Sequence record: KY014601.1
Length of the DNA stretch: 59,024 bases
Direction: 5' to 3' (one strand)
DNA from: Escherichia phage Utah
Within the stretch, counting starts at the first letter, position 1; each line of letters opens with the position of its first letter. This document shows, in pieces, positions 10,754-40,724 of the stretch. The notes below the pieces were generated by a model. It did no database searches. It saw only the letters and a program-made list of their open reading frames with translations, and was not told the origin of the DNA. Both the position numbers and the translations under genes were made by a program.

Positions 10754-11309
10754 TGCGCCACTGGCAACCCGGAATCGCCGCTCTAATGCGCCGGACGCCG
10801 ATACCGAAGCGATGATCTTTCAGGGCTGCAACATCACGCAACTGGCGAAGCTGTTTCGCATGGAGCGCCGGGACATCACGCCGAAAATCATGGATGTCCC
10901 GCCTGTCGGCGAGCGTGGCGGGTACCCGATCTACGCGGTTCACGAAGTGGCCCCGTACCTCGTTAAGCCGCTGTACGATGTCGAGACGTACCTGCGCCGC
11001 ATGAATTTCAAGGATCTGCCGAAGGAGTTGTCGAAAGAGTTTTGGGCCGGGCAGCGTGCAAAGCAGGACTTCGACATCAAAGCGGGAAACCTGTGGGAAA
11101 CCGAGAAGGTGATCGAGCACTTCGGCGAGGCGGTGAAGGTGCTGCGCATGTCGATGTTGCTCATTCCCGACACGCTGGCGCGTCAGGCCGGACTCAGCGA
11201 GCCGCAACGTCAGGTCATCACGTCATCCATTGACGCCATGCTGAACGACCTGTCGAGCGCGCTGATCGATAAGTTCAACGGCGACGAGGTGGATGACGAT
11301 GAAGTTTAA
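10740..11309 (+). CDS. Terminase small subunit (Nu1-like) with acidic C-terminus
   Basis: Immediately upstream of and overlapping TerL; HTH-like N-region ITQLAKLFRMERRDITPKI resembling lambda Nu1 N-terminus; ends ...DEVDDDEV; possible alternative start at 10812. Confidence 0.55.
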   Translation: MTKSNAPLATRNRRSNAPDADTEAMIFQGCNITQLAKLFRMERRDITPKIMDVPPVGERGGYPIYAVHEVAPYLVKPLYDVETYLRRMNFKDLPKELSKEFWAGQRAKQDFDIKAGNLWETEKVIEHFGEAVKVLRMSMLLIPDTLARQAGLSEPQRQVITSSIDAMLNDLSSALIDKFNGDEVDDDEV

Positions 11310-13374: not shown

Positions 13375-13384
13375 GAGAACCACC

Positions 13385-13639
13385 ATGACACCAGAAGAAT
13401 GCCGCGCGCAATATCGCCTCATGCTCAAAGAAGCGATGGATGCGTACCACCAATTAAACCTCGGCGGCTCGGTGCGCGTCGTGGTGGATCAGAACAGTGA
13501 ACGCGTGGAATATACCGCAGCGAACCGACAAAGCCTATGGGCCTACATCGTTCGACTGCAAAACGCGATTAATTCGGACAACCCTTGCGCGGCCTTCATG
13601 GGCCTACCAAGTTCACCAGCAGGATTCTTATTCCCATGA
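13385..13639 (+). CDS. Head-tail joining protein (lambda gpW-like)
   Basis: 84 aa; RVVVDQNSERVEYTAANRQSLWAYIVRLQ and C-terminal PAGF resemble lambda gpW; sits between TerL and portal. Confidence 0.6.
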   Translation: MTPEECRAQYRLMLKEAMDAYHQLNLGGSVRVVVDQNSERVEYTAANRQSLWAYIVRLQNAINSDNPCAAFMGLPSSPAGFLFP

Positions 13640-21699: not shown

Positions 21700-21941
21700 T
21701 TCTCGACTTCCACAATAACCTTCGTGCCACGGTGTCCTTCCTCATGTCCGAGGGACACCCGGCCGCCCGGCATTACCCGTTAGGATATTTGTGGTCAGAA
21801 ACGAAAATCGCGAAGCGCCGGGTAAACGCGGGTTATGTCACCCAAAGTTTACTGATGCAGTCCTGTATCGGCGCTGTACTCAACGGCAAGAAAGGCGGGA
21901 AAGAGTATAAAAAACTAATCAAGGAATTATCTGATGGCTAA
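21612..21941 (+). CDS. -1 frame extension producing G-T fusion tail assembly chaperone (gpGT-like)
   Basis: Open -1 frame after slippery site ends 7 nt inside tape measure gene; ORF track shows only the 21732..21941 part from an internal GTG. Confidence 0.5.
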   Translation, partial: KKDVRSGNGADRQDEGRRGGVETRSKREIVLDFHNNLRATVSFLMSEGHPAARHYPLGYLWSETKIAKRRVNAGYVTQSLLMQSCIGAVLNGKKGGKEYKKLIKELSDG

Positions 21942-24900
21942 CAGTAAAGACGTCGAGCTACGAATCCGGGCGAGGGACTACAGCCAGAAGCCCCTAAAGG
22001 CTGTGACCAGCGCCATTGAGCATATGGCGAAGGCGCAGGACGAACAGCGTAAAGCAGCCGAGCGCGGTGAAATCTCGACGCGTGATCTGGAAGCCGCATA
22101 CAAAAAGCTGGAAAGTGCCGGGAACCAACTGCTTAAACTCAACTCGCTGATCGAGGTGTTCAAACGGCAGAATCAGGCCATGACGGAGGCGACGGCCAAG
22201 ACCGAAGCACTCCGCCAGAAACAGGCCGACCTCCAGAAGACCTACGATGCAACCGCGAATGTTACGCAGAAACAGGAACGGGCGCTGGCCCGGGTAACAC
22301 GTCAGGTCGAAGCCGCAACCCGCGCGGAAGCGAATCAGGCTGATCGCGTGAACCGGGCCGCCCGCGACCTCGAACGATACGGGATCGAGACGTCGAAAGT
22401 TGGGGCGGCCCAAGCGGGTATCATCACCAGCGTCGCGCAGGTTAACCGTGTCCTCGAACGTCAGGACGAAATCATTTCAACGTCTGCTGCTGCGGCCGCA
22501 CAAGCGAAGGTAATTCGTGGATTGCAGCAGCAGGCAGATCAGGCGATGGCGACGGCGCGAGGGTACCAAACCCTCGGCCGCGTGGTGCAGCAGGCAACCG
22601 GGCAACTCGGGCCGCTTGGCACGCAGATCCAGACCATCGTCAGTCCGGCAGAAGCGGCGCGCCGCACGCTGTCCGGCCTTGAGAAGCAGGTACACGGCGT
22701 TACTACCGAACTGGCCCGTAACAGTAAGGAAGTGGAAAACGTCGCTCAGAAAGTCCGAATGCTCAACGAGGCGAATAAAACAGTCTCGGCGCTGGCGCAG
22801 CAAATCGACCTGTACCGCCAGCAGGTGTCAACCCTTCGGAACGCCCGCACTGAATACCAACAAGCGCGACAAGACGTCATCAAGTTAGCACAGCAGATGC
22901 GCACCGCGACAACTGATACGGGCGCTTTAGGTATTCAGATGCAGGCCGCCCAACAACGGCTATCCGCAGCCGCGACGGCCATGCGAAACACGGCCACGGC
23001 CGCACGGTCTACACAAGCCGCATTACGTGCAGCACAGGTGGACACTCGCAACCTGTCCGATGCGGAAGCCCGGCTGATCTCCACCAGCCAACAATCGGCC
23101 GCAGCGCTTAACACGCTGTCCACCGCGACGAACCGGAACAGCCAAGCGGCGCGCGACGGCTCAAAGGCGTGGTCACTGTTCCGGGACGAGGGCCGTACCA
23201 CGTTGTCCTTCCTGCAACGTATTCGCGGTGAAGTGCTGGCGCTGACGACCACTTACATCGGTTTTCAGGGGGCTATCAATCTGGCGGGCGGCGCGATCGA
23301 CGCGTACAAGAACCGTCAGCAGGCGATGGTCAAGATTTCGAACGTGGTGGGTAACAGCCAAGCGGCCATCAACAAAGAGTGGGATTACATGCGCGATCTG
23401 GCGAACACGCTCGGGATCGACATCACCACCTTGTCGCAGTCGTACACGAAATTCGCCGTGTCCGCGAAGGCGGTTGGCCTGTCATTGCAGGACACAAAGT
23501 TCATCTTCGAAAGCGTAGCGAAAGCGGGCCGTGTCTTCCACTTGTCACAGGCCGACATGGAAGGCGTATTCCGTGCGCTGGAACAGATGCTGTCGAAGGG
23601 TCAGGTGTATGCGGAAGAATTGCGCGGCCAATTGGGTGAACGTCTCCCGGCGGCTTTCGCGCTGTTCGCAAAAGGCATGGACATGACCACCGCCGAATTG
23701 ATGAAGGCAATGCAAAACGGGGAAGTCACTGGCGAGGCGGTTATCAACTTCGCCCGCGAGCAGGCCAAAGCGATCGACGCGCAACTCGAAACAGCGCAGA
23801 AAGGCGTTGATGCAATGGAAGCGCGCGCCCGTAACGCCATGAACGCGTTCCAACTGGCATTGGCCGACGCAGGCTTTATCGAAGCGTACGTGCAGATGCT
23901 TAACAAGATCACCGACTTCCTGAACAGCGAGGATGGCCGGGCGGCCGCCGTTAAACTCGGCGAGGCGTTCGGCACGTTGGCCGACGCTGTGACGTGGTGC
24001 ATCGAGAACGTGGACACGCTGATCACCGCGTTAAGCATTCTGGCCGGGCTGAAAGTGGTGCAGTTCATCGGCGGCATGATTTCGGGCCTTAAAAACCTGC
24101 TGCCGCTGTTCAGCACGCTCGGTAAAATCGGCGATGGCATTATCACGGTGCTGGAAGGTGTCGCGGCCAGAATGATTGCGGCACAAGGGGCCGTAGGGCT
24201 TCTCGGCATCGCGTTGAAAGGGCTGACCCGGTTAATCCCGATTGTCGGGTGGGCGCTGCTGGCCTACGACATCGGTGCCATCATGTACGACCAGTCGCAG
24301 ACCTTCCGCGAGGCGGTCAACGCGGTCATCCGGGACTTCAAGAACCTCGGCAATCAACTGGCGGCCGTCGTCGATTCTATCCCGGCGCTGCTGTACGATC
24401 TGGCCGTGTCGGTGCTGCGCCCTATTACCACGATGTTCGCCGACACCACGCAGGCGATTATTAAGTGGATCGCGGATGTCCTGAAACTGATCCCGGGCGT
24501 TGGTCAAGGGCTGTCCGAGTGGGCCACATCCATCGGCGACGACCTGACGAAAGAGCAGCGCGGCTTCCTCGAATCGACTGGCCGTATTTGGGATAACGTC
24601 AATAAGCAGTGGGTGAAACTGAACGACGAAATGGTCGCGAAGAACGCCGATGCGACTGACAAGATTCGCGGGCAGGTCAACCAACTGGCCGCCGACATGG
24701 CCGCTATCACGAAGGGTGATGGCTTCCAGTTCACGCAAGACCCGGGAACAGGCGTCACGAAGCGCAGCCGTGAAATCGCGGGCCTGACGAAAGAACTGAA
24801 CAAGATGGAAGAGGCGGCCAAGAAGGCGGACGTTGCATCGCGTAAAGCCGAACAGCGGAAGAACCTGTCCGGCCGCCTCGCCATCATTGACGAGGAATTT

Positions 24901-26229
24901 GCGCCGCAGTACGCCCGCGCTAAGTCGATTGGCGGCTCGGAGGGTGACGCCCTTACCAAACGTCTTGACGCCGTCGTGGCCGCGCGCAAGAAGGCAGAAA
25001 CGACCCTCTTCAACTCGCAGCAACGTACGACGGGTGGTATCAAGAAACAGGAAAACGCATTACAGGCGCTGATCAACAAGTACAACGAGTTGAATGCTGC
25101 CGTCGGCGTGAAGGAAGTTAAGATTGACCCGAATGCCACGTTTGACGACCGTCTGGCCGCTAAACTGGCCGCCGTCAATACGCAGTACGATCAGCTGATC
25201 GCCAAGTCGAAGAAACTCGGGACTGGCGGGCAGAATCTGGCCGGGCAGTTCGAAGACCTGCGCAAACGCAATCTGGAATACGCGACCACGCAGGCCAAAC
25301 TCGAAGAACTGAAACGCATTGAGGATCAGTTAAACTCGCAGCAGGAGACGAAGAAAAACCTGCTGGACGAAATCAACGCCAAACAGCAGGCCGGGATTAT
25401 CTCCGAAAACGAAGCTGTCGCGCAGACGGTAGCCTTGTATCAGAACATGAATGCGGGCATCGCGTCGTCAGCCGAGCAGCTTGACGTCTTTGCGCAGAAG
25501 ATTAAAGACACGATGTCGCCGGAAGAATTCAGCCGCATCATGGCGCAGATTGCATCCATCAAAGCCGGGCTGGTGGACGTCACAGGCACCTTCACGACGA
25601 TGGACACGACTGTCGTTCAGGGTGTACTGGACGGAATGAGCACGGCGCTGTCATCCATCGTTGATGAAATGGCGTTGGTGGTGGCCGGGTCACAAAGCAT
25701 TGGCGATGCGTTCTCAAACCTCGGCGTGGCCGTGGCACGGTTCTTCGCAGACTTCTTGCAGAAGATCGCAATGGCAATCTTGCAGCAGATGGCGCTCAAC
25801 GCGTTGGCCTCTATGGGGGGTGGCATCGGTTCGGCGGCCGTTGCATTAGGCGGCACCGTGGCGAAACATAACGGCGGCACCGTCGGCAGTAAGACAACTG
25901 GTGGCACGCAGATGAAGGGCGGGATCAGCCCGGCCATGTTCGCGAATGCTCCGCGTTTCCATGACGGCGGCCTGCCGGGCTTGCGTTCTGACGAAGTCCC
26001 GACCATTCTGCAAAAAGGCGAACAGGTACTGTCGAAGGATGACCCGAACAACGTGCTTAACCAGTCGCGCGGCGGCGGCCAGACGGCGCAGTCGCCACAA
26101 GGTCTTCGCTTCGTGCTGGTGGATGACAGGTCGAAAGTGCCGGAAGCCATGAACACGCCGGAAGGAGAAAAGGCGGTGATGCAGATTCTTCAACGCAACG
26201 TACCGACGTTGAAAAACTTAGTGGGATAA
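21934..26229 (+). CDS. Tail tape measure protein
   Basis: 1431 aa; Ala/Gln-rich coiled-coil N-half, hydrophobic Gly/Ala-rich segments; follows G/GT. Confidence 0.85.
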   Translation: MANSKDVELRIRARDYSQKPLKAVTSAIEHMAKAQDEQRKAAERGEISTRDLEAAYKKLESAGNQLLKLNSLIEVFKRQNQAMTEATAKTEALRQKQADLQKTYDATANVTQKQERALARVTRQVEAATRAEANQADRVNRAARDLERYGIETSKVGAAQAGIITSVAQVNRVLERQDEIISTSAAAAAQAKVIRGLQQQADQAMATARGYQTLGRVVQQATGQLGPLGTQIQTIVSPAEAARRTLSGLEKQVHGVTTELARNSKEVENVAQKVRMLNEANKTVSALAQQIDLYRQQVSTLRNARTEYQQARQDVIKLAQQMRTATTDTGALGIQMQAAQQRLSAAATAMRNTATAARSTQAALRAAQVDTRNLSDAEARLISTSQQSAAALNTLSTATNRNSQAARDGSKAWSLFRDEGRTTLSFLQRIRGEVLALTTTYIGFQGAINLAGGAIDAYKNRQQAMVKISNVVGNSQAAINKEWDYMRDLANTLGIDITTLSQSYTKFAVSAKAVGLSLQDTKFIFESVAKAGRVFHLSQADMEGVFRALEQMLSKGQVYAEELRGQLGERLPAAFALFAKGMDMTTAELMKAMQNGEVTGEAVINFAREQAKAIDAQLETAQKGVDAMEARARNAMNAFQLALADAGFIEAYVQMLNKITDFLNSEDGRAAAVKLGEAFGTLADAVTWCIENVDTLITALSILAGLKVVQFIGGMISGLKNLLPLFSTLGKIGDGIITVLEGVAARMIAAQGAVGLLGIALKGLTRLIPIVGWALLAYDIGAIMYDQSQTFREAVNAVIRDFKNLGNQLAAVVDSIPALLYDLAVSVLRPITTMFADTTQAIIKWIADVLKLIPGVGQGLSEWATSIGDDLTKEQRGFLESTGRIWDNVNKQWVKLNDEMVAKNADATDKIRGQVNQLAADMAAITKGDGFQFTQDPGTGVTKRSREIAGLTKELNKMEEAAKKADVASRKAEQRKNLSGRLAIIDEEFAPQYARAKSIGGSEGDALTKRLDAVVAARKKAETTLFNSQQRTTGGIKKQENALQALINKYNELNAAVGVKEVKIDPNATFDDRLAAKLAAVNTQYDQLIAKSKKLGTGGQNLAGQFEDLRKRNLEYATTQAKLEELKRIEDQLNSQQETKKNLLDEINAKQQAGIISENEAVAQTVALYQNMNAGIASSAEQLDVFAQKIKDTMSPEEFSRIMAQIASIKAGLVDVTGTFTTMDTTVVQGVLDGMSTALSSIVDEMALVVAGSQSIGDAFSNLGVAVARFFADFLQKIAMAILQQMALNALASMGGGIGSAAVALGGTVAKHNGGTVGSKTTGGTQMKGGISPAMFANAPRFHDGGLPGLRSDEVPTILQKGEQVLSKDDPNNVLNQSRGGGQTAQSPQGLRFVLVDDRSKVPEAMNTPEGEKAVMQILQRNVPTLKNLVG

Positions 26230-28993: not shown

Positions 28994-29232
28994 TGAGCAG
29001 ACACGACGAGCCGCAGGATCAGCCGCGCATCTTTATGCGCCATGCCCGGAAACTCGGGTATTGCAAAAACGGGTCGGAGCGCTTGGCCGAGCGCTTCGGG
29101 ATCACCTTCGAACAATTCCTACGGGAAGGCTACCCGGTAGCGGAAGCCATGAAGTCCGCAAACCCGCTGCTGCGTAAGGCCGCAGCCGTGGCCCAACAAG
29201 AATGGGACGAGGCGCACGCACATGGGAAGTAA
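28993..29232 (+). CDS. Small hypothetical tail-region protein
   Basis: 79 aa; overlaps neighbours by 1 and 11 nt. Confidence 0.35.
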   Translation: MSRHDEPQDQPRIFMRHARKLGYCKNGSERLAERFGITFEQFLREGYPVAEAMKSANPLLRKAAAVAQQEWDEAHAHGK

Positions 29233-32200
29233 AGCCAAGAAGGTTACGGTTGGGTACAAATACTACATGGGCCTGTTTATGGGCCTTTTCCGTGGCCCGG
29301 TGAATGAGATTGTCGAGATCCGCGTGGGCGACCGTACCGCGTGGACAGGCTCAATCACTGGCAACACAACCATCCGGATCAACCGCGAAGACTTGTTCGG
29401 CGGCACGAAGGCGGAAGGCGGCATTGATGGCCCGCTCGAAGTTTACATGGGCGCGCCGACGCAGACCGTCAGCCAGAAGTTAAAGAACATGCTCGGTGGC
29501 CGTCAGCCGGAATTCCGTGGCGTCGTTACCGCATACTTCGACGGTCTTATCTGCGCCATGAATCCGTACCCGAAGCAGTGGAAATTCAAGGCCCGCCGCT
29601 CTACAGCCGGGTGGACTGGCGGCGTCTGGTATCCGGAAAAATGTCTGGTCAAGATGCAGGGGTACGACGGTCAGGGCAATCAGCACGAAATCCATGCCAT
29701 GAACCCGGCGCACATCCTGTATGAGTGCCAGTCGAACTACGAATGGGGCCGTGGCCTGTCACGCTCGCTTATCGACGATACGACGTTCCGCCTCGCGGCC
29801 GACACCCTGTTTAACGAAAACTTCGGCCTTTGCATCCGATGGAACCGTCAGGACACGCTCGAATCGTTCATGCAGCTTATCCTCGACCATATCGGCGGTG
29901 CGATGTACGTCAGCAAAGTGACGGGTAAACTGTCCCTGCGGTTGATCCGGAAGGACTACGACTTCGACACGCTGCCGATCTTCGACACGGATTCCGGGCT
30001 GCTGTCCATTCAGGAAGCGACCAACGCGTCTCCGGCCAATCTGGTTAACGAAGTGGTCGTGACCTACCACAACCCGATCATGGACGAAGACCAGCAGGTG
30101 CGTAGCCACAACCTCGCGCAGATCCAGAATCAGGGCTGTCTGAACAGCAATACGATTGAATACCTCGGCATCCCTACCGGGAAACTGGCGATGCAGGTGG
30201 CACAGCGTGACTTGCGCGCCGCGTCAACCAACGTCCGCCGTTTCACCGTGATCTGTGACCGCCGGGCATGGAACGTGCAACCGGGCGACGTGCTGAAAGT
30301 GCGTGACCCGAAACAGCGCGGCCTGACCGAAGTGGTTATCCGCGTCGGTACCGTAGAAGACGGCACGCTGCCGGACGGCAAGATCAAGGTTGTCGCGCTG
30401 CAAGACCAGTTCGCCTTCCAGTTAAACACGTTCAACCAAGTCGAGCCGCCAGCCGGGTATGAGCCAGACCTGATTCCTGCGATTGCCCGCCGCATCGTGT
30501 ACGAAATGCCGTACGTGGATTTGGTGCAGCAGTTACCGGACGGTGAACTGAATGCCGTTGGCCCTAACGATGCGTTTATCAACTCGCAGGCTGAGAAGCC
30601 GACCGACATGTCCGCCGCGTATGACATGGGTATCATGGCCGAAGGTGAATCCGGCTTCGACATCCGTGGCAACGGTGACTTCGGCGCGTTCGGATCACTG
30701 GCCGCCGACATCGACTACCTGTCAACGCAAATCATCCTGTCCGAAATGACCGACATGTGGGACGACGTTCAGCCCGGATTTGTGGCGCGCATCGCCAAGC
30801 CTGTTCTTGACGGCCAACGCACGCAGATGGAAATCGCCGAAGAGTTTGTCCGCATCGACGCCATCAATGGCAACGTGATTACCGTAGCGCGCGGCGTACT
30901 CGACACTATCCCATTCCGCCACCAGAAAAGCGAAATGCTTTGGGTGACGACGTACGACGGCGGTACTGACTGGCAGAAATACGCGGGCAACGAGTCCATC
31001 GACATCAAAATCCTGCCGTGGACATTGGGCGGCGGCCGCTTCCCGATTGAAGATGCGCCGATTGATCATCTGGACATGGACTTCCGCCAAATCCGCCCAT
31101 ACCCGCCGGGCAACGTGCAGCACTATCTCGCTTCGACGTCAACTCTGCAACGCTGGTATGTACCGTCCGCGCTGACCTACACGGCCAACGCCGGGGAAAC
31201 GCCTGACACGTACACCCTGACTTGGGCGCACCGCGACCGGATCCTGCAAGGCGATAAGCCTGTCCCGCACATCGACGGCGACATCGGGCCTGAACCGGGA
31301 ACCTCGTACACTATCCGCGTCTACAATCAGGAAGGAACGTTGGTTCGCACCGAGTCAGGTATCAACGGCACGACGTGGAATTGGCCGTACGCAACCGCAG
31401 CGGCTGACATGAATGTCGAAGCCAGCCTGTTTGACCCGGTGCTCGCGACGCTCCGCCTGACGTCTGTCCGCAATGGCCGTGAAAGTTGGGAATACTACGA
31501 AATGAAGGTCAGCGTTTATAAGAAGCCGCCGCAGTTCGTATATGACGCCAGCCTGATGCAGTTTGCTGCGCAGCCGTACAACGCCGCCAGTGATCCTAAC
31601 CCGCCAACGCCACCGATGGACGGCCCGTATGTTTCGTCCCTGATGCAGTTTGCCGCGCAGCCAGATGGTAGCGAGGACTTCGGCCCGGCGGAAAGCATGA
31701 ATGGCCCGAACGTGGCGCTACTGCCGCACCAAGTCACGCAGACGTCGTCAATCATTACGCCGCTCGATACGCTGCTGTACGAAACCCCGTACATCCAGTT
31801 ATCCCGCGACGGCCGTGACCTGAACACGTCGAAAGTCAGCGCATACGTGGCGCGTTCGTCCGACCGCACCGTCGATTCGTATACCCTGTTCACCAAGCAC
31901 GAAGCGGACGCAAACTACACGTCGGCCGGGACTCAGCCGTGGACACCGTGGGGCATGACCACCGTCGGCCTCGGCTTCTTCACGGACGAAGTGACCCTCG
32001 ACCCGACGTCGGATAAAGACGGCGTTCCTATCGCTGGCGCGCAGGTGGGCGACCTTCTGCTTATCGATCAGGAATTGATGTCCATCACCGCCATCAACGG
32101 CCGCACGTACAAGATTGGGCGTGGTGTGGCTGACACCATTCCGGCGCAGCACTACAGCCGCCGTCCGGTCTGGCTGATCTCCGTGGGCTTCGGCTACTCC

Positions 32201-33112
32201 GACATGGCATTCGGCGATAACGAAAAGGCGATGGTCATCATTCGCCCGGATACCTACGGCACCGACATCCCGCTGAACAAGCTGTACCCGCTCCAGTTGC
32301 AGATGCAGTACCGTCCGAAACGTCCATACCCGCCGGGTCTGATGATGATTGGCGGCCAACCGTTCTTCAACACCGCGAGCGGACTGGCAGACGATTTCAA
32401 CCCGTACAACAATCTGAAAGCGAAAGACGTGGTATGCACGTACGCACACCGCAACCGTGTATCACAATCCACCACGGCGCGCGACCACTTCGCCGTCGGC
32501 ATCACTCCGGAACCGGGCGTGAAGTACCGCGTGCGCATTGGTTATGCGTACTGGTCGCAGTCCGGAAGCGGCTTCTCGCTGCTGTCTCAGTTCGAAACGG
32601 AAGACGCGGGCTTCATCATGCGCGCGGCCGACCTTGAACGTTGGGGCCGTCAGGCGGGCTATGCGCAAGACGCTGGCGGCTACTCCACGTTAAACGTGAC
32701 CGTCAACGCGATTCGTGATGGAATGCTGAACTGGCAGGGATATACGATGACCGTGCGCGTGCCGTCCTTCCCGCTTCCTCCGGGACAGAAACCGGGCGGT
32801 GGCGATGGGCCGTGGAACCCGCCGGGCGGTGGCAATACTGGCGGTACTACTCCGCCGACGGAGCCGCCGGATCGTCCAGACCCGAGCGAGCCGGGCACCA
32901 CTGACCCATCCGAGCCGACGAAGCCGGACGAGCCGGAAGAACCGCAGCCACCAGTCGATCCGGAAGACCCGGATACTGACCCGCCGGAACCGCCGGAACC
33001 GCCCGTTGACCCGACCAACGTACCGGGATGGTCATTGAGTTGGGATCACGGTTGGGCGATGACACTGCCAGATTTCCGATATGTTCCACCAGCAGAAGAG
33101 GAACCTGAATAA
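29222..33112 (+). CDS. Host specificity / central tail fibre protein (lambda gpJ-like) with Pro/Asp/Glu-rich C-terminal region
   Basis: 1296 aa; N-terminus MGSKAKK... like gpJ MGKGSSKG...; internal duplication SLMQFAAQP x2; C-terminal PPGQKPGGGDG...PPEPPEPPVDP low-complexity stretch. Confidence 0.7.
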   Translation: MGSKAKKVTVGYKYYMGLFMGLFRGPVNEIVEIRVGDRTAWTGSITGNTTIRINREDLFGGTKAEGGIDGPLEVYMGAPTQTVSQKLKNMLGGRQPEFRGVVTAYFDGLICAMNPYPKQWKFKARRSTAGWTGGVWYPEKCLVKMQGYDGQGNQHEIHAMNPAHILYECQSNYEWGRGLSRSLIDDTTFRLAADTLFNENFGLCIRWNRQDTLESFMQLILDHIGGAMYVSKVTGKLSLRLIRKDYDFDTLPIFDTDSGLLSIQEATNASPANLVNEVVVTYHNPIMDEDQQVRSHNLAQIQNQGCLNSNTIEYLGIPTGKLAMQVAQRDLRAASTNVRRFTVICDRRAWNVQPGDVLKVRDPKQRGLTEVVIRVGTVEDGTLPDGKIKVVALQDQFAFQLNTFNQVEPPAGYEPDLIPAIARRIVYEMPYVDLVQQLPDGELNAVGPNDAFINSQAEKPTDMSAAYDMGIMAEGESGFDIRGNGDFGAFGSLAADIDYLSTQIILSEMTDMWDDVQPGFVARIAKPVLDGQRTQMEIAEEFVRIDAINGNVITVARGVLDTIPFRHQKSEMLWVTTYDGGTDWQKYAGNESIDIKILPWTLGGGRFPIEDAPIDHLDMDFRQIRPYPPGNVQHYLASTSTLQRWYVPSALTYTANAGETPDTYTLTWAHRDRILQGDKPVPHIDGDIGPEPGTSYTIRVYNQEGTLVRTESGINGTTWNWPYATAAADMNVEASLFDPVLATLRLTSVRNGRESWEYYEMKVSVYKKPPQFVYDASLMQFAAQPYNAASDPNPPTPPMDGPYVSSLMQFAAQPDGSEDFGPAESMNGPNVALLPHQVTQTSSIITPLDTLLYETPYIQLSRDGRDLNTSKVSAYVARSSDRTVDSYTLFTKHEADANYTSAGTQPWTPWGMTTVGLGFFTDEVTLDPTSDKDGVPIAGAQVGDLLLIDQELMSITAINGRTYKIGRGVADTIPAQHYSRRPVWLISVGFGYSDMAFGDNEKAMVIIRPDTYGTDIPLNKLYPLQLQMQYRPKRPYPPGLMMIGGQPFFNTASGLADDFNPYNNLKAKDVVCTYAHRNRVSQSTTARDHFAVGITPEPGVKYRVRIGYAYWSQSGSGFSLLSQFETEDAGFIMRAADLERWGRQAGYAQDAGGYSTLNVTVNAIRDGMLNWQGYTMTVRVPSFPLPPGQKPGGGDGPWNPPGGGNTGGTTPPTEPPDRPDPSEPGTTDPSEPTKPDEPEEPQPPVDPEDPDTDPPEPPEPPVDPTNVPGWSLSWDHGWAMTLPDFRYVPPAEEEPE

Positions 33113-33852
33113 TGCCGAAAAAGACAGCCCCGAATCAGGGGCTACCCTACGGGTGGATTCGCGGGGAAGACTATTGGGGTGGCCCGATGTCAGACTCGCA
33201 AATCTTCCTCGACACCACGCTATTCCTGACACTGGAATCGCTGACCTTCTCCGCTCCGCCGCCGGACGTGGTGGACGGGGCCACCTACGTCGTCGCGGCT
33301 AACCCGACGGGGGCGTGGGCCGGACATGAAGGCGATGTGGCCGTGTACGTGGAAAAGGTCTGGACGTTTTACAAGCCTCGTTACGGATGGCGCGCTCGCG
33401 TCCGTTCGTACGAGAAATTCTTGTGGTTTAACGGCACGACGTGGCTTGACGAGGCGACCGGGGAAGACCCGGTCAACCCTGACCCCGACCCAAGCGTTAA
33501 GCCGAAATGGTACGACATCGGCGTGACAGTGTCGGACAGCATGTACGCGAATGAACCCGTCGTGCATCTGCCGATCCTTGACCCGATGTATCTGCCTGCC
33601 AATATGGTTGGCTCACAGTTCGACATGGCCGACGGCGCAAGCCCGGCCTATTACCAATTCCGCGTGCAGCGCAACGGCCAGAACGTCGCAACGATGACCG
33701 TGGAAATCGGAAACTTCAACGCATCGTTTACCACTGCCGGGGGCAACCCGATTTCCTTCGCCGCCGGGGATCGCATGACGGTTCGCGCGCAGCAGGAAGC
33801 CGTCGCCGGGATGAAAAACTTTGGCTTCGTAATTCGCATGGGACTGGTCTAA
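33112..33852 (+). CDS. Hypothetical tail-associated protein
   Basis: 246 aa; start overlaps J-like stop. Confidence 0.4.
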   Translation: MPKKTAPNQGLPYGWIRGEDYWGGPMSDSQIFLDTTLFLTLESLTFSAPPPDVVDGATYVVAANPTGAWAGHEGDVAVYVEKVWTFYKPRYGWRARVRSYEKFLWFNGTTWLDEATGEDPVNPDPDPSVKPKWYDIGVTVSDSMYANEPVVHLPILDPMYLPANMVGSQFDMADGASPAYYQFRVQRNGQNVATMTVEIGNFNASFTTAGGNPISFAAGDRMTVRAQQEAVAGMKNFGFVIRMGLV

Positions 33853-33861
33853 GGGGATCAC

Positions 33862-34869
33862 ATGGCAAGTTATTTTGATGGATATGAGCAGTTCCGTTCG
33901 ACGGACACGTCTAACCCGGGAACCTTTATGCGGCTCGCCGGGTACACGGTTCGAGGCGCGATTTCGGCGGGTCTTGGCCGCCTCCCGGCGAGCATCGGAC
34001 TGTACACGCTGAACAGCGCCTACGAGCGCGACTGGACATGGGGTGGCGACACCCTCACCATCGGCTTTGCGTGCAAGCAGCAGGCGCGTGGCGCGCTATT
34101 TGGGCTAAAGGTCGGTGACGCCACTGGCCGCGATGTTCCGCATGTCGTTGTCTACACTGACCCGGTGTCGGCGCTCGTCACCATCCAGACCGGGCCAGAC
34201 CAGTCGGAAGTCGGGTATGTCACGCCGATCCCGACACGCTGGTATTACTATGAAGTCGTGATGAACCGCGCCACGAAGGTTATCGAGGTGTTTGTCAACG
34301 GGAAATCGGACGTAGCCTATACACTGCCGGACGTCATTGCGGCGTCGGCCGTCGTGCGCATGGTCTTCAACCCGTTCGACATGCTGCCATCGTTCCCTGC
34401 CGATGCGAACTACAAGGAAGACACGAAGGTATTCGACGACATGTACGCGCAGGACGGCGGCCGCTTAGGGGCCATCCAGATCAGCGGACGTCTGCCGGAC
34501 GGCGACCGTGATACCGAATGGGGCGTGGCCGGGCCTAACCCGACGGCAGCGCATAACCAGATGGTCGGCCGACTGCCGCCAGACATGGCAAACATGTACA
34601 TCTACACTGGTACGAATGACCGTCACGACTCGTTTATCTCGACGGCGAAGTTACCGGATAACGGGGCCATTCTGGCGCAGGGACTGATCGCATTAGTCCG
34701 GAAGGCCACGGCCGACCCGGTGTCGATTATCGCGAACATTGACAGTCACACCGTTACCCTGTCGAATATCGGCCGTAATTGGGAATATCGTTACGCGCAA
34801 TTCACCACAAGCGGTTATGATCGAGCCGCCATTGAAGCCGCCGAATTCGGTGTGCGTTCAGTAATTTAA
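33862..34869 (+). CDS. Lectin-like (LamG/ConA-like signature) putative receptor-binding protein, paralog 1
   Basis: 335 aa; shares MxxFxDGYD N-terminus, WYYYEVV...IEVFVNG, IQISGRLP, YIYTGTND motifs with the two following genes. Confidence 0.5.
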   Translation: MASYFDGYEQFRSTDTSNPGTFMRLAGYTVRGAISAGLGRLPASIGLYTLNSAYERDWTWGGDTLTIGFACKQQARGALFGLKVGDATGRDVPHVVVYTDPVSALVTIQTGPDQSEVGYVTPIPTRWYYYEVVMNRATKVIEVFVNGKSDVAYTLPDVIAASAVVRMVFNPFDMLPSFPADANYKEDTKVFDDMYAQDGGRLGAIQISGRLPDGDRDTEWGVAGPNPTAAHNQMVGRLPPDMANMYIYTGTNDRHDSFISTAKLPDNGAILAQGLIALVRKATADPVSIIANIDSHTVTLSNIGRNWEYRYAQFTTSGYDRAAIEAAEFGVRSVI

Positions 34870-34879
34870 AGGGGTTACT

Positions 34880-35842
34880 ATGCTGAAATTTATGGACGGT
34901 TTTGACCAGCTACGCGGCTGGTCTGACGTTACGGATGGGCTGACCAAATGCGGGTACACCGTGTCTGGCACGCCTACGTTAGAAGAAGGACGCGTGGCTA
35001 CGCAGATGGCGGTATCACTGCCGGACACGGCCAGCCTGAAACGCGTGTTCACCTCCGGGGCCACGAAGGTCGTGTTTGGCTTTGCCTTCCGCGCTATCGG
35101 TCTGCGCCACACCCTGATCACCATCAAAGATGTCGCGACGATTACGTGGAACGAGACTGACGGGAAGATCACGGCCGCTGGCGGTACCGGAACGGCGGTG
35201 CTGCTGCTGGACTTGTGGTACTACATCGAAGTGGTTCTGGACAAGACTACCAGCACGATCGAGGTGTACGTGAACAACGGGCTGGACATCACCGCTCCTT
35301 CGCCGTCGAGCGCTAACCCGGTCACTAACTATGAAGTCACATGGGCGGGCGTTGCCACGGCGCAGTTCCTTCTCGACGACATCCAGTTCATCGACAACCA
35401 GCCGGGTAAGTATACCGGGCGCATCGGGCCTATCCAGATCACCAGCCGCTTGCCGATGGTGGACGTGGACAAAGAATGGTCGCCGTCATCCGGCAATGAT
35501 CACTACCCGCTCGTCTACAATCAGCCGCCCGTCGAGGGGTCGTACATCCAGTCGAACACGTCCGGCGCGACCGACACGTTTCTATCAAACACCGTCATCC
35601 CTGATACGCAAAACATTCTGGCCGTCGGCATGACCGTGCTGAACAAAAAGTCAGACGTGGACAACCGTCAGTTAGGCATGGTCATCGGCCAAAAAGGCGA
35701 CACGCAAAAAGAAGTTATCGACGCGGCGCTATCCACGACTGAAAAGTATAGTTATGCTGTGTTCGAGACGAACGCGGCCGGGCAAGACTGGAATGACGAA
35801 CGACTCAGCGAAGCGCCGTTCGGCGTCATCGTAAGACCATAA
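34880..35842 (+). CDS. Lectin-like putative receptor-binding protein, paralog 2
   Basis: 320 aa; WYYIEVV...IEVYVNNG, IQITSRLP, YIQSNTSGATD. Confidence 0.5.
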   Translation: MLKFMDGFDQLRGWSDVTDGLTKCGYTVSGTPTLEEGRVATQMAVSLPDTASLKRVFTSGATKVVFGFAFRAIGLRHTLITIKDVATITWNETDGKITAAGGTGTAVLLLDLWYYIEVVLDKTTSTIEVYVNNGLDITAPSPSSANPVTNYEVTWAGVATAQFLLDDIQFIDNQPGKYTGRIGPIQITSRLPMVDVDKEWSPSSGNDHYPLVYNQPPVEGSYIQSNTSGATDTFLSNTVIPDTQNILAVGMTVLNKKSDVDNRQLGMVIGQKGDTQKEVIDAALSTTEKYSYAVFETNAAGQDWNDERLSEAPFGVIVRP

Positions 35843-35855
35843 GGAGCATACCGAA

Positions 35856-36875
35856 ATGTTTAAATTCTGTGACGGGTACGACCACTATGCCGAAATCGGC
35901 GCGAAGGGTACGGCCCTACAAAGTTATCTGGAAGCCGCCGGGTACGTGGTGCGTAATGCCAGCGATTCCACGTTTTCCGTTGTCGAGGGCCGCCGGACAG
36001 GTGCGCGTGCGCTGAAATTCACCGTGGCCGCCAGTTCATCTGTCAACGCCTCACTGTCATGGGGATTCACCACGACGGCCTCGTCAGTCGTCTTCGGATT
36101 TGCCATGAAAGCCGGGCTATCCCGTATGCGTATCGCGCGTATCGAGAACATCGTGGACATCGAGTGGGACACCACGACCGGGAAAATCCGCGTAGGCGAG
36201 CAGTTAGGCGTCAACCCGCTGATCCTGAACGCATGGTACTACTTCGAAATCGAGATCGATAAGACGGCCAACACCGTCAAGGTCTACGCGAATAACGAAT
36301 TGCAGTTAACCGTTACGCCATCGAGTGCGCCGACCACCACGTACACAATCGTTTGGGGGCAGACGGGTACCGCACCTAATGCTGGCGAACAGACACTGGA
36401 TGACTTCTACGTGATCGACGGTTCCGGTAGCCGCAACAACGCGCGCCTGACTCCGGTCGAAGTGACCAGTCGTATGCCAACGGCCGACGTTTCTACGCAG
36501 TGGGAAGTCGTGAACGCCTCGTCTGCCACGCCGCACTATCAGATCGTGTCACAGCTTTCCCCGGGCGGCGAGTCGAAGCCATACCTGCAATCGAACACCG
36601 CAGGGGCGACCGATATGTACCGTTCGAACGTGACGCTGCCGAACAATAACCAGATCTTCGCCGTGTCCGTCATCGCGTACGCCCGTAAAGGCGACCTTGA
36701 TGATCGTAAACTCGGGCTGGTGGTCAACACGGAAGGCGGTACGCCGACTGAAATTCAGGTGCCGCTCACCGAGTCGTACAAGTATTATCAGGCATCGTTC
36801 GAGCAAGCGCCGGGCGGAAGTGACTGGAACCAGAACAACGTCGAATCTTTGCAATTCGGCATCATCACTCGATAA
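35856..36875 (+). CDS. Lectin-like putative receptor-binding protein, paralog 3
   Basis: 339 aa; WYYFEIE...VKVYANN, VEVTSRMP, YLQSNTAGATD. Confidence 0.5.
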   Translation: MFKFCDGYDHYAEIGAKGTALQSYLEAAGYVVRNASDSTFSVVEGRRTGARALKFTVAASSSVNASLSWGFTTTASSVVFGFAMKAGLSRMRIARIENIVDIEWDTTTGKIRVGEQLGVNPLILNAWYYFEIEIDKTANTVKVYANNELQLTVTPSSAPTTTYTIVWGQTGTAPNAGEQTLDDFYVIDGSGSRNNARLTPVEVTSRMPTADVSTQWEVVNASSATPHYQIVSQLSPGGESKPYLQSNTAGATDMYRSNVTLPNNNQIFAVSVIAYARKGDLDDRKLGLVVNTEGGTPTEIQVPLTESYKYYQASFEQAPGGSDWNQNNVESLQFGIITR

Positions 36876-36889
36876 GGGAGGGACTCACT

Positions 36890-38116
36890 ATGCCTGTAGT
36901 ATGGCACTGCGGTTTTAATGGTTTTATCAACAATGCGTCGGGGCAGGGTCAGTCTAACCTGTTTATCAACACAAACGATAACGTGGCGGGAGGCCATGCC
37001 CTCTCCACCGACAATTTAATTAATAACGTTTTTGGTCGTGGAAACGGCAACCAAAACGGCGGCTTTCTCCCTCTGATCACTTACTACGGATGTAAATGGA
37101 CGGCATCCGGGTCGTACGGGTCGTCTTATGTTTTTGGTCGTGTTAAGCCGTCTTTCTTTGATAATTCCGTGCCATGCCTAAGCACCGAACAATACCAACC
37201 TGCTAACCAATCTGACTGGTGGGCCGGGTGGCAGTTCCGAATTGATTTGTGCTGGCCTTCGGCGGAACGCCTGACGACGTCGTGGCGCATGGGCTTCCGT
37301 ATTGGCCGCGCAACACACCCCACATACAATATTGGTTATCAAGTCTATATCTGCCCGGCAGGTATTAACGGCGCAGAAGGCCGAGACTTATATCGTATCC
37401 CGATCACTGCGGGTCAGGACGAGAAGTATATGGAGGTGGAATGGTTGGCGGGTACCAAGACCCTTAACATCTATCTGAACGACGAACTTGTCTCGACCCG
37501 CACCAACTACACCGCCTACGATATGTCGTACGGCCTTATTTTGGTGTGCGAACATTACGCTAGCAATAGCACTAGCTCCACACCGTTCTTCGGTTTTGAA
37601 CTGCGGGACATGTATGTCCAGAAAATCGTTTCAGATGCAGATCAACGCCTCGGGTCTTCGACGAAAGTATATGCGTTCAATCCCGTTAATGACGATGTTG
37701 TACAGTTCTCTCGGCCAGACGCATATTCGTCAAACGCCGCCGTCGCGGCAACGCCGATCGCTCCCGGTGGTATCACCCCGACGCCGTCGCAATCTACTGC
37801 AATTCTCGGGGCGGACGTGGTCGGACAGCAAGACCTGTATAACATTGACATTTCCAAAGTCAGCACACGTCTGGCGTCGATTGAAGCGGTTAACGTCCGG
37901 ACGATGGCCCGAAATCCGTTGCTTGGAAATAGACAATCTGCCGCGATCGCCAAGTCCGGGGCCACTCAAACCCAAAGCGAGAACACATCGACGCTCGAAC
38001 AAGGCGGCCTGTGGCGTTTCAACACGTTGCAGATGGTGTCTGACCCGGCGGATGGCTCGCGCTGGAACCTTACAAAACTGGCCGGGCTTAAAGTCGGTAC
38101 CAAATTCGTCGCGTAA
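36890..38116 (+). CDS. Hypothetical tail-region protein, possibly divergent fourth paralog
   Basis: 408 aa; MEVEWLAGTKTLNIYLNDEL loosely resembles the WYY..E...VYVNN core. Confidence 0.4.
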   Translation: MPVVWHCGFNGFINNASGQGQSNLFINTNDNVAGGHALSTDNLINNVFGRGNGNQNGGFLPLITYYGCKWTASGSYGSSYVFGRVKPSFFDNSVPCLSTEQYQPANQSDWWAGWQFRIDLCWPSAERLTTSWRMGFRIGRATHPTYNIGYQVYICPAGINGAEGRDLYRIPITAGQDEKYMEVEWLAGTKTLNIYLNDELVSTRTNYTAYDMSYGLILVCEHYASNSTSSTPFFGFELRDMYVQKIVSDADQRLGSSTKVYAFNPVNDDVVQFSRPDAYSSNAAVAATPIAPGGITPTPSQSTAILGADVVGQQDLYNIDISKVSTRLASIEAVNVRTMARNPLLGNRQSAAIAKSGATQTQSENTSTLEQGGLWRFNTLQMVSDPADGSRWNLTKLAGLKVGTKFVA

Positions 38117-38125
38117 GGGGGCCAT

Positions 38126-40321
38126 GTGGCGGATGAAGACGTAGGTATCAGCGCGGCCAAACTGGTCGGCGAAGCCTTGCAGTGGAATGGCGCGAAGCCC
38201 AAACTCACATACCTGTCCCGGTGTGTGGGCGAAGCGTTAGCCATTTCCGCATTGAACATCGACGCGGCGAAAAACTTCGGGGAGGTTTTGCAGTGGGACG
38301 GTAAATTGCCGTCCATCTTCCGCGCGGCCGAGTTGGTCGGCGAAGTGCTGGCGATTCAGAAGATGGAGATCCGCGCGTCAACGATGGTCTGTGAAGCACT
38401 GGTCAAAGAGCCGCAATTTATGGCGGCCGAAATGATCTGCGAGGCTATCGGTCAGGCGGCCACGGAACGGCCACCGCTTTACGCAGATGCGGTTTATCAG
38501 TACGTCACGCAGCACGATGTCGTACCGCCGTTGTCGGATGTCATTTCGCCGGAAAGTCTGTACACGTTGTGGAATTACGCCATTGTCCAGCGGCCGATCG
38601 ATGCCCCGATTTCCTACAACATCGTGAAGCAGGCGGTGACGCTGTCCGTTCTGGCGTCGCCTATCGTGACTATTTCGTACGACAAGGTGAAGACCGCGTG
38701 GTCGTATGCCGTGGTGTCCGCGACGCTCGGTGACTTCCCGCTGCCGGATGAAATGTGGTCGAAGATCAGCACGAAACAGGCGTGGAATCTGGTATTGCAG
38801 TCGATCGACATCCCGTACGTCCCGACGTCTGGTGTGTTCGTTCGCCATGAATCGACGCTGGTGGTTCAGGCCCATCCGCTGCCGATGTACACGACGCCTG
38901 CGTCCGTGAAGTCGAACGTGGTTCTGGCCGCGCAGAAGCGCCCGGTTGAACGACTCCCGCGCTCAAGGACTCGCGTGGCGCAGGCATTATCGCAGGCCGT
39001 TACCGCGTTGCCGATCCCGATGCCCCGGTCAAACGTGTTCGCCGCGCAGACGCTGTCACAGGCGGTCATCCCGGCGGACTTCGTTGACCCGACTGTCGGT
39101 GTCGAGCACGCGGCCGCAGTGACGTCGTATGCTGTTTGCGAGTATCAGGTGTCGCTTCCTATCAGTTACACGCGCGCGAAGACCCTGACGCCGCTGGTGC
39201 TGCAATTTAGCGATAACCAACGAACCATCCCGCTGTCCACGATGCGCACCAAACACGTTTCGTCTCAGTTCTTGGTCAAGTCTGACTTGCGCCCGGTGCT
39301 GTCTCGGATGCGCACCAAACACGTTTCGTCTCAGTTCTTGGTCAAGTCTGACTTGCGCCCGGTGCTGTCTCGGACGCGCGTTAAACAGGTACGCGGCTAT
39401 GCGGTGCGGGCGGAAGAGTACACGCCTCCGATTAACCTGCTGGTATGGTCGCGCGCTGACGCTGTTCGCATGTCGGTGGTGCAGCAGGCAACGGACTACC
39501 CTGACCCGGGAATACCTACAACGTCGGCCATCGTTAGTGCGGCCACGGCGTACCACGTCATGAAAGCGCTGGACTACGAAGACCCGAACGATATGTGGGA
39601 GGCGAGCAAGGTTCAGACCGTGCCGCAGTTATTAGAGAAGGTGGTGAAAGCCCAACCGCTCCGGCTCCCGATCTCGTACGCTCCGCTGGCGCAATTTGTT
39701 GAACTGGTGACGCGGTACCAATACATGCCGCCTCCGGGTGAAGTTGCCGAGTCCGGTATCCATGTTCGTCAGGTAATGCAGCCAGTGGCGTTCCGCGCGA
39801 CGTACCCTGACCCGACTGTCCCGGTATCCTACCTGACGGTCAATCAGGTACTGGAGCACATCGCGACCCCGGCCGACTACCCGGACGCCCACCTGCCGAC
39901 GTCGGACGCGATTGTAAATCAGGTATTGGAACACGTTGCGCAGATTGACGATTTCCCTGATCCCGGTACCATGTTCCGGCCGCTTATTGTCAGCCAGATC
40001 ATTCAGCAGGCGGCACAGGATGCGTCTTACCCGGATTGGAGCACACTGCATAAACCGCTTGCGGTTCAGCAGGTAATTCAGCATGTATCAATGACGGCGG
40101 AATACCCTGACAAGGACGTCCCGCAATCATTTGCAAAGGTGTCTCAAGTTTTGCAGCACTATGCCGATAAAGCTAATTACCCAGACAAAGATGCTCCCCA
40201 ATCCACGCTACGAGTCCGTCAGGTACTTGAGCAGGTAATGATGCGCGACAAGTCGATGTACGAAATGCCGCAGCCACCACGGAAACATCGGGTGCAAATC
40301 ACTTGCCGCTTTGTGTACTGA
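38126..40321 (+). CDS. Highly repetitive protein (N-terminal VGEALQW repeats, tandem 22-aa duplication, C-terminal YPD repeats); possible fibre
   Basis: 731 aa; GTG start after AAGGGGG RBS; repeats LVGEALQWNG / FGEVLQWDG / LVGEVLAI; six or more YPDx units with VNQVLEH / VSQVLQH. Confidence 0.5.
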   Translation: MADEDVGISAAKLVGEALQWNGAKPKLTYLSRCVGEALAISALNIDAAKNFGEVLQWDGKLPSIFRAAELVGEVLAIQKMEIRASTMVCEALVKEPQFMAAEMICEAIGQAATERPPLYADAVYQYVTQHDVVPPLSDVISPESLYTLWNYAIVQRPIDAPISYNIVKQAVTLSVLASPIVTISYDKVKTAWSYAVVSATLGDFPLPDEMWSKISTKQAWNLVLQSIDIPYVPTSGVFVRHESTLVVQAHPLPMYTTPASVKSNVVLAAQKRPVERLPRSRTRVAQALSQAVTALPIPMPRSNVFAAQTLSQAVIPADFVDPTVGVEHAAAVTSYAVCEYQVSLPISYTRAKTLTPLVLQFSDNQRTIPLSTMRTKHVSSQFLVKSDLRPVLSRMRTKHVSSQFLVKSDLRPVLSRTRVKQVRGYAVRAEEYTPPINLLVWSRADAVRMSVVQQATDYPDPGIPTTSAIVSAATAYHVMKALDYEDPNDMWEASKVQTVPQLLEKVVKAQPLRLPISYAPLAQFVELVTRYQYMPPPGEVAESGIHVRQVMQPVAFRATYPDPTVPVSYLTVNQVLEHIATPADYPDAHLPTSDAIVNQVLEHVAQIDDFPDPGTMFRPLIVSQIIQQAAQDASYPDWSTLHKPLAVQQVIQHVSMTAEYPDKDVPQSFAKVSQVLQHYADKANYPDKDAPQSTLRVRQVLEQVMMRDKSMYEMPQPPRKHRVQITCRFVY
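39241..39372 (+). repeat. Perfect 66-bp tandem duplication inside the repeat-protein gene
   Basis: 39241-39306 is identical to 39307-39372 (GATGCGCACCAAACACGTTTCG...GTGCTGTCTCG), encoding MRTKHVSSQFLVKSDLRPVLSR twice. Confidence 0.9.
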
Positions 40322-40339: not shown

Positions 40340-40343
40340 TCTT

Positions 40344-40370
40344 AGCGGGCTTGTCCCGCTAATTTTTTTT
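40344..40370 (+). terminator. Rho-independent terminator after repeat-protein gene
   Basis: AGCGGG-CTTGT-CCCGCT followed by TTTTTTTT (40363-40370). Confidence 0.7.
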
Positions 40371-40385
40371 GTGAGGAAGCACCCA

Positions 40386-40724
40386 ATGAGCGAAATGGAA
40401 CGGGAACGGCCGGGGGATACCTCCGGCGGCATCAAGTTAGACTTGTCTGTCAATCTCCCCACGATTCTGACGATGGCTTCGATGCTGGTGGCGGCGGTAC
40501 TGTACGTCAATAACCGCTTCGCCGACCTATCAAATCAGAACACGCAGACGGACACCCGGCTTACCAACGTAGAGAAACGTCAGGACTCCACTGAAGCGGC
40601 GTTCACGGTTCTCCGGGCCGAAACCGTCTCGCAAAACTCCGCCCTTCGATCAGACCTTCGCGCCGACATGCGCGACCTGAAACAAAGCGTGGATACCCTA
40701 TCTTCCCAAATGATGAGGAAATAA
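40386..40724 (+). CDS. Putative holin-like membrane protein with C-terminal coiled-coil
   Basis: 112 aa from ATG 40386 (RBS GAGGAAG); single TM-like segment LPTILTMASMLVAAVLYV; directly upstream of lysin-like gene. Confidence 0.4.
   Translation: MSEMERERPGDTSGGIKLDLSVNLPTILTMASMLVAAVLYVNNRFADLSNQNTQTDTRLTNVEKRQDSTEAAFTVLRAETVSQNSALRSDLRADMRDLKQSVDTLSSQMMRK

Follow-up and report, generated by a model that had tools for sequence, protein, structure and literature searches.

Introduction

Chi-like phages are flagellum-dependent siphophages. Their virions carry a single fibre (PMC6631126), a central one that has been ascribed to the J-like protein YSD1_29 (PMC12264135). According to the chi flagellin paper, the composition of the chi fibre has not been demonstrated experimentally and no structure of it is available (PMC10399903). 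For the make-up of this fibre and its grip on the spinning flagellum, the gene studied here, Utah_037, provides a concrete and testable candidate. Utah_037 is an open reading frame (ORF) of 731 amino acids (aa) with a GTG start at 38126..40321 of Escherichia phage Utah, a Chi-like flagellum-dependent siphophage of the genus Chivirus. The window is the whole stretch of 59,024 nucleotides of record KY014601.1; all positions refer to it and all features described are on the plus strand, unless stated otherwise. The ORF is confirmed in the sequence, and its product agrees in every residue (100% identity) with the entry 'hypothetical protein Utah_037 [Escherichia phage Utah]'. The counterparts YSD1_35, Chi gp36 and iEPS5_038 are annotated as hypothetical in every case. 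Utah_037 represents an uncharacterised repeat protein family within a well-studied phage group: the family is conserved in Casjensviridae recorded from motile hosts, yet it is unannotated and has no structural relative.

Here we analyse the repeats, the relatives and the surroundings of Utah_037. We consider it fairly probable that Utah_037 is made late and belongs, in few copies per virion, to the structural proteins that form the tail tip or fibre apparatus of flagellotropic Casjensviridae, and that its length is modular. This function is inferred because the homologue in Serratia phage JS26 is abundant in virions and is encoded in a gene cluster classed as essential.

Comparison with described systems

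The relative with virion data is gp49 (23663-25786 in its own genome) of Serratia phage JS26, which is flagellum-dependent as well (PMC8754663). Its alignment with Utah_037 covers 590 aa at 27% identity and stays collinear up to the C-terminus, with an E-value of 2e-36. The two are true homologues that share the three-part repeat plan and the position of last tail gene before the lysis genes; the low identity sets them apart, as does the label 'putative capsid protein' under which gp49 was left without further analysis. In purified JS26 virions gp49 is among the 21 virion proteins of Tables S5 and S6, with 68 unique peptides, 1241 peptide-spectrum matches (PSMs) and 87.9% coverage (PMC8754663). 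From the PSMs of Table S6 and the gene lengths we computed PSMs per residue, which amount to 1.8 for gp49, 2.2 for the J-like gp56, 2.0 for the DUF2793 protein gp55 and 2.7 for the distal tail protein gp60, against 37 for the tail tube gp64 and 76 for the major capsid protein gp69. Since the value of gp49 lies close to those of the tip proteins and far from those of tube and capsid, gp49 is present at low copy, comparable to tail-tip proteins, and the number of Utah_037 molecules per virion is probably about equal to that of the trimeric J-like protein. The five PHROG-2448 paralogues of JS26 are all abundant in virions too, at 2.9-6.2 PSMs per residue.

A Tn-seq preprint classes the JS26 cluster gp46-gp84 as essential and predicts all virion-detected proteins to be essential (10.64898/2025.12.19.695335); the correspondence between gene numbering and this cluster was confirmed by position. 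The JS26 homologue is thus not a protein absent from virions and dispensable, which is how an earlier note, made from the sequence of Utah, had worded the finding that would speak against its view: peptides cover 88% of gp49 and its gene lies in the Tn-seq-essential cluster.

A second point of comparison is the J-like central tail protein itself, YSD1_29 or Chi BH2P. In Utah it is encoded at 29222..33112 (1296 aa), and it matches PDB 8vjh chain A end to end; its product is the published Chi-like tail fibre (PMC12264135). It resembles Utah_037 in belonging to the same operon and the same virion region and in its similar abundance in JS26. It differs in being another gene with no sequence similarity to Utah_037 and in having a solved N-terminal structure (8vjh_A), whereas Utah_037 has none. 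We therefore rejected the idea that Utah_037 is the published fibre of Chi and YSD1. Nor is it the tape measure protein, whose ORF (1431 aa) lies at 21934-26229, about 12 kb upstream.

The third comparison is with the side tail fibres of lambdoid phages, to which the position of the gene had pointed in the earlier note. The likeness lies in a gene that follows the J-like gene and precedes the lysis region, and Utah_037 is probably a fibrous tail-tip accessory of dispensable length. The analogy goes no further. Utah_037 has no homology to lambda Stf and shows no fibre repeat similarity, either to Pfam families at E <= 0.1 or in NCBIfam; immediately downstream, where a Tfa-like assembly chaperone gene was looked for, stand a terminator, a gene for a 117-aa holin or Rz-like protein and an endolysin gene instead; and the Stf pattern of a conserved N-terminus with a variable C-terminus is reversed. 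Moreover, Chi-like phages have one central fibre only.

Repeat architecture of Utah_037

The N-terminal units that the earlier note had seen are present. They follow the pattern [LFV]-[VC]-[GC]-E-[AV]-[LI] with a period of ~17-18 aa over aa 8-115 (38147..38470), and their number differs among homologues. The main repeat array occupies aa ~135-710 (38528..40255). Its units, about 26 in number and each 21-28 aa long, share the motif [P]-x-S-x-x-x-V-x-Q-x-h-x-x-h, h being hydrophobic. Upon alignment on the conserved serines the spacing is 21-28 aa overall, ~22 aa in the middle of the array and exactly 25 aa in the last six units. These six are the [YF]PD units of aa 560-709 (39803..40252), which lie inside a C-terminal module of 175 aa; the at least six units claimed before are thus found at perfect 25-aa spacing, along with a diverged seventh at aa 458. 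The array is followed by the basic and nearly invariant tail SMYEMPQPPRKHRVQITCRFVY (40253..40318), which has a strand-like alternating hydrophobic pattern at its end. The last 22 residues of the protein (...MPQPPRKHRVQITCRFVY) are nearly invariant across homologues.

Profile hidden Markov models (HMMs) of the units confirmed this regularity. The anchor-serine unit HMM, trained on Utah_037 itself, gave 20 matches in the protein against 1.4 in shuffled sequences, and the YPD unit HMM gave nine against 0.7. The unit HMM trained on Utah fails to transfer to distant homologues, and the unit counts given here are those of Utah_037 only. Profile-profile comparison by hhalign linked the sub-regions M1 and M2 with 94% probability, M1 and M3 with 85%, and M3 and C with 96%. 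The central and C-terminal repeats, which had been taken for separate families, are by these profiles one, and Utah_037 holds two repeat families rather than three. No kinship between the N-terminal VGE[AV]L units and the remaining repeats was detectable by hhalign (probability ~0), and the candidate membership of these units in the main family found no support there.

In positions 10-25 of the 25-aa units hydrophobicity peaks at 80-100 degrees per residue, as in an alpha-helix, with no peak at 160-180 degrees. Because the periodicity is alpha-helical, the unit reads as a proline-rich loop (YPDxxxPxS) plus an amphipathic helix of ~14 residues.

The perfect 66-bp tandem duplication reported for the 731-aa ORF, here called dupA, is present as well. 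Its first copy spans 39241..39306 (in codon phase, aa 373-394) and its second, identical copy 39307..39372 (in codon phase, aa 395-416); period-66 identity extends from 39241 to 39374, with a Tandem Repeats Finder score of 271. It encodes MRTKHVSSQFLVKSDLRPVLSR twice, and each copy amounts to exactly one period of the main repeat family. The segment that follows shares only 25 of 66 nucleotides (nt) and four of 22 aa with the duplicated unit. What had been described as a degenerate third unit is therefore simply the next unit of the old array and not a decayed copy of dupA.

Copy number variation among Chivirus relatives

Repeat copy number was surveyed in the 98 Chivirus records that contain the Utah_037 repeat region. 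About 88 of these carry no second copy of either of the two duplications described here and encode 709 aa. A contiguous dupA junction occurs in five records, from the four phages iEPS5, TS13, ER3 and ABTNLsp1. Five others, from phages Siskin, BPS2, BPS4 and sal2, carry a different 66-bp duplication, dupB, two units upstream of dupA, which encodes TSYAVCEYQVSLPISYTRAKSL twice. The corresponding unit of Utah is single-copy (39120..39185, aa 333-354, TSYAVCEYQVSLPISYTRAKTL) and has TGACG at each boundary, 66 nt apart. None of the 98 records has both duplications or three copies of either unit. The gene thus varies between 709 aa and two kinds of 731 aa, which bears out the expectation that copy number would differ between related isolates.

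The two dupA copies are identical in Utah, iEPS5 and TS13, with a single mismatch in ER3 and three mismatches in ABTNLsp1; those of dupB are perfect in Siskin and BPS2 and diverged in sal2. As four further phages carry dupA and its copies have diverged in ER3 and ABTNLsp1, the duplication was inherited and is not brand new. The very recent event that its perfection had suggested does not fit a duplication shared with phages from Malawi (ER3) and China (ABTNLsp1), whose carriers' genes differ from Utah by 0.8-2.9%; the gene of Salmonella phage iEPS5 is 99.2% identical. An assembly artefact, or a feature private to Utah, was rejected as well, as dupA is found in four more independently sequenced phages.

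In the gene tree the dupB carriers are monophyletic, while single-copy ER6 is nested among the dupA carriers. ER6 equals Utah across alignment columns 900-1400 save for the 66 bp, and this nesting together with the otherwise identical sequence suggests secondary loss or recombination. The most distant homologues lack the dupA unit altogether, and their indels fall in the same middle zone. At the boundaries of each duplication a short direct repeat (GCTGTC in dupA, TGACG in dupB) recurs at a distance of exactly 66 nt, and the starts of adjacent units are still alike in sequence; these boundaries most likely reflect slippage or unequal exchange between neighbouring units. Judged from the aligned genes, dupA and dupB are two independent gains of one 66-bp unit in different Chivirus lineages, and the middle of the gene is a region that both tolerates and generates one-unit changes, by which protein length can be adjusted in steps. 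A locus prone to gain and loss of repeats, as had been proposed, is in keeping with the two independent duplications, the nested single copy of ER6 and the missing unit of distant homologues. The natural 709-aa form and the two different 731-aa forms offer isogenic-like length variants with which fibre length, adsorption and host range can be compared.

Some of the deposited records deserve mention. In KR296689/NC_048632 (phage 35), KR296691/NC_029045 (phage 37), KX765862/NC_048648 (ST-101) and KX765863 (ST-118) the homologue is 1 nt short, at 2129 rather than 2130 nt, and its annotation is split into two coding sequences, including a 'putative capsid protein' and a 'site-specific recombinase', owing to a 1-nt frameshift or a sequencing error in a gene that is conserved elsewhere. 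Chi-like sequence with 90-99% identity to the Utah_037 gene also occurs in GU169904.1 (Staphylococcus phage SA1), OR844949.1 (Enterococcus phage fragment), OR848973.1 (Listeria phage fragment) and OR850062.1. These records are named for phages with Gram-positive hosts, and their contamination or mislabelling is likely.

Conservation and fold

Utah_037 matches the phrog_7226 profile over its full length (E = 0, 1288.7 bits). This is its sole match in the library, and PHROG 7226 has no annotated function. Among 1.84 billion representative proteins the family comprises 89 clusters at 50% identity, with lengths tightly grouped in an interquartile range of 644-709 aa, and very distant members retain the three-part plan. 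The hosts are those of Casjensviridae: Salmonella, Proteus, Providencia, Serratia, Hafnia, Cronobacter, Yersinia, Erwinia and Xanthomonas. Conservation is polar. The N-terminus varies in sequence and in unit number, and the C-terminus is nearly invariant; across 66 homologues the C-terminal 175-aa module is free or nearly free of indels and of equal or near-equal length. The same polarity is visible in the DNA, as Utah and Chi differ by 11.2% in the 5' part of the gene and by 6.4% in the 3' part.

Searches with Utah_037 returned no Pfam family at E <= 0.1, no NCBIfam match and, with the single sequence as well as with a profile at E <= 1, no PDB match. The literature searched, including by locus tags, holds no published function, structure or repeat description for gp49 or the PHROG 7226 family.

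One remote homologue stands apart. P0093, a protein of 1536 aa encoded at 10001-14611 of a 229-kb contig from a tailings metagenome (L014), combines glycine-rich and F5/8 type C (discoidin) domains with YPD-type repeats; a neighbouring gene also has a discoidin domain, and the contig possibly derives from a jumbo phage. Domains of this kind are typical of adhesins and fibres, so that the fusion is a hint of a fibre-type role.

Proposed role and alternative explanations

In the model that we favour, the body of Utah_037 strings together about 26 tandem units, each 21-28 aa long; in the C-terminal 25-aa units a loop that contains proline precedes ~14 residues whose hydrophobicity has an alpha-helical period. 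The length-invariant 175-aa C-terminal module, ending in the conserved basic strand, probably docks onto a conserved phage partner, and the variable N-terminus would face away from it. The 66-bp duplication, most likely arisen via slippage or unequal exchange between short direct repeats one unit apart, adds exactly one unit within the length-tolerant middle zone and lengthens the protein by one module, leaving the remainder undisturbed. What has been observed is the repeat anatomy, the homology, the polymorphism in copy number and a JS26 homologue that is present and abundant in virions; placement in the tail tip or fibre, oligomeric state, the polarity of docking and whatever the extra unit may do are deduced.

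Fibre shafts built of short repeats vary in unit number between relatives, and the adenovirus fibre shaft, made of 15-aa repeats, is a familiar case. Utah_037 shares with such shafts a short regular unit with conserved hydrophobic positions, a proline-containing turn, unit changes in whole steps and, probably, a low copy number at a vertex or tail end. Its short tandem units vary in number between relatives, with ~26 units and +0, +1 by dupA or +1 by dupB. It differs in lacking sequence similarity and in its alpha-helical rather than beta periodicity. Towards a homotrimeric intertwined fold AlphaFold2 gave no lead, with a predicted local distance difference test score (pLDDT) of 30 for the monomer and 27 for a linker-joined trimer.

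Several points weigh against this role. Immunogold labelling attributes the Chi-like fibre to YSD1_29 (PMC12264135), and Utah_037 is not found in the PDB, the Chi tail-tip entry 8vjh included. AlphaFold2 gave no usable model, either for the full-length monomer (alignment of 28 sequences, pLDDT 30) or for a construct in which Gly/Ser linkers of 45 residues connect three C-terminal 175-aa modules (16 sequences, pLDDT 27). As for JS26, gp49 is only 27% identical to Utah_037 and was labelled 'putative capsid protein' by its authors (PMC8754663); PSM counts reflect abundance only roughly; and essentiality of gp49 itself is not proven, because transposon insertions can be polar on the downstream lysis genes. 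Our literature search, whose scope did not extend to the YSD1 fibre and Chi cryo-EM papers, returned no direct data on Utah, Chi or YSD1 gp35/36.

The alternative that survives best gives Utah_037 a larger part: the single long fibre that wraps around the flagellum would be built mainly of it, the J-like protein only serving as anchor and the units acting as modular length or flagellin-contact elements. We regard this as possible but doubtful. No other gene of the tail-end block has long regular fibre-like repeats, and the JS26 homologue of Utah_037 is as abundant as the J-like protein. The C-terminal 533 aa of the J-like protein look mostly globular and end in a low-complexity tail of ~85 aa rich in P, E and D (~32850-33109), which makes further components of a long fibre plausible. 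Such a globular-looking C-terminus is hard to square with a J-like protein that makes a very long thin fibre alone. Among the matches listed by tblastn against phages nearly all host genera are motile, the sole Klebsiella record coming from K. aerogenes, and Yonseivirus of immotile Klebsiella has a different tail-fibre cassette (PMC12264135). No Yonseivirus genome was searched directly for Utah_037, and none surfaced in a search with the distal tail protein made for this comparison. A failed AlphaFold2 monomer is what would be expected of an obligately co-assembled fibre, but the linker-trimer failed likewise. Against a fibre-building Utah_037 stand the immunogold assignment of the fibre to YSD1_29 and a C-terminus that is conserved despite the very different flagellins of the hosts, the opposite of what a receptor-binding end would show.

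A more specific form of this idea, somewhat less probable again, is that the chi fibre is built largely of Utah_037, not of the J-like protein alone, and that the ~26 units of Utah_037, each of 22-25 aa, are modular, nebulin-like contacts or length elements along the fibre or the flagellar groove. If true, gains and losses of single units would tune the length or the grip of the fibre, and the failure of AlphaFold2 would reflect a fold that forms only on co-assembly.

It is improbable that Utah_037 is instead a baseplate-like or tail-tip accessory which, together with the four PHROG-2448 paralogues, serves a second infection step at the cell surface and not flagellum binding. Chi does depend on AcrABZ-TolC as its secondary receptor on the cell (cited in PMC9266447); Utah_037 is transcribed together with the DUF2793 gene and the paralogues, the JS26 counterparts were detected alongside each other in virions, and the conserved C-terminal module, putatively for docking, would suit binding to a conserved tip. 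An extended array of ~26 units would, however, be unusual in a compact tip protein, the deposited Chi tip model has neither density nor a chain for the counterpart of Utah_037, and Pfam and NCBIfam reveal no known adhesin or enzymatic domain. Were Utah_037 only a minor tip accessory, the finding would shrink to commonplace variation of repeat number in one structural gene of a phage.

Exchangeable apolipoproteins consist of 22-mer amphipathic helices punctuated by proline. Utah_037 resembles them in form only: its units are ~22 aa long, their periodicity is helical and amphipathic, and prolines separate them. It is not homologous to apolipoproteins and belongs to another biological setting. 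An ejected or membrane-active virion protein whose proline-punctuated amphipathic helices act on the host envelope at DNA entry or lysis is very unlikely, for although the 22-25-aa units, the place next to the lysis cassette and the low-copy presence of the JS26 homologue in virions would suit it, a terminator separates Utah_037 from the lysis genes, no apolipoprotein, ejection-protein or other Pfam match exists, and the ejection role in siphophages normally falls to the tape measure, of which one is present at 21934-26229.

Genomic surroundings

The probable tail-tip or fibre-apparatus protein is encoded by the last gene of the tail module, in the order J-like gene, DUF2793 gene, PHROG-2448 paralogues, Utah_037, terminator and lysis genes. 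The DUF2793 'tail fiber protein' gene lies at 33112-33852, and the four PHROG-2448 paralogues of 335, 320, 339 and 408 aa at 33862-34869, 34880-35842, 35856-36875 and 36890-38116, respectively; all belong to the same conserved block upstream of Utah_037, and the synteny of the paralogues is kept in JS26 and in a distant 65-kb metagenomic phage contig (locus L016). The gene order around Utah_037 is likewise kept in iEPS5, YSD1, JS26 and that contig. A Shine-Dalgarno-like AAGGGGG (38115..38121) stands 4 nt before the GTG start and overlaps the stop of the upstream gene; a ribosome binding site is annotated at the equivalent place in the Siskin record.

Downstream, a strong intrinsic terminator at 40342..40370, formed by an 8-bp GC-rich stem (40342-40362) followed by T8, ends the tail module before the lysis cassette, and a terminator is annotated in Siskin as well. 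Then come the genes of the 117-aa holin or Rz-like protein and of the endolysin. The 117-aa ORF (40371-40724) carries conflicting labels: PHROG 7686 makes it an Rz-like spanin, the Siskin record a class III holin and that of iEPS5 lysis protein B. The 'endolysin' at 40728-41441 matches PHROG profiles of tape-measure and tail-injection transglycosylase domains, and its JS26 counterpart, gp47, was seen as a trace in virions (three peptides, 10 PSMs).

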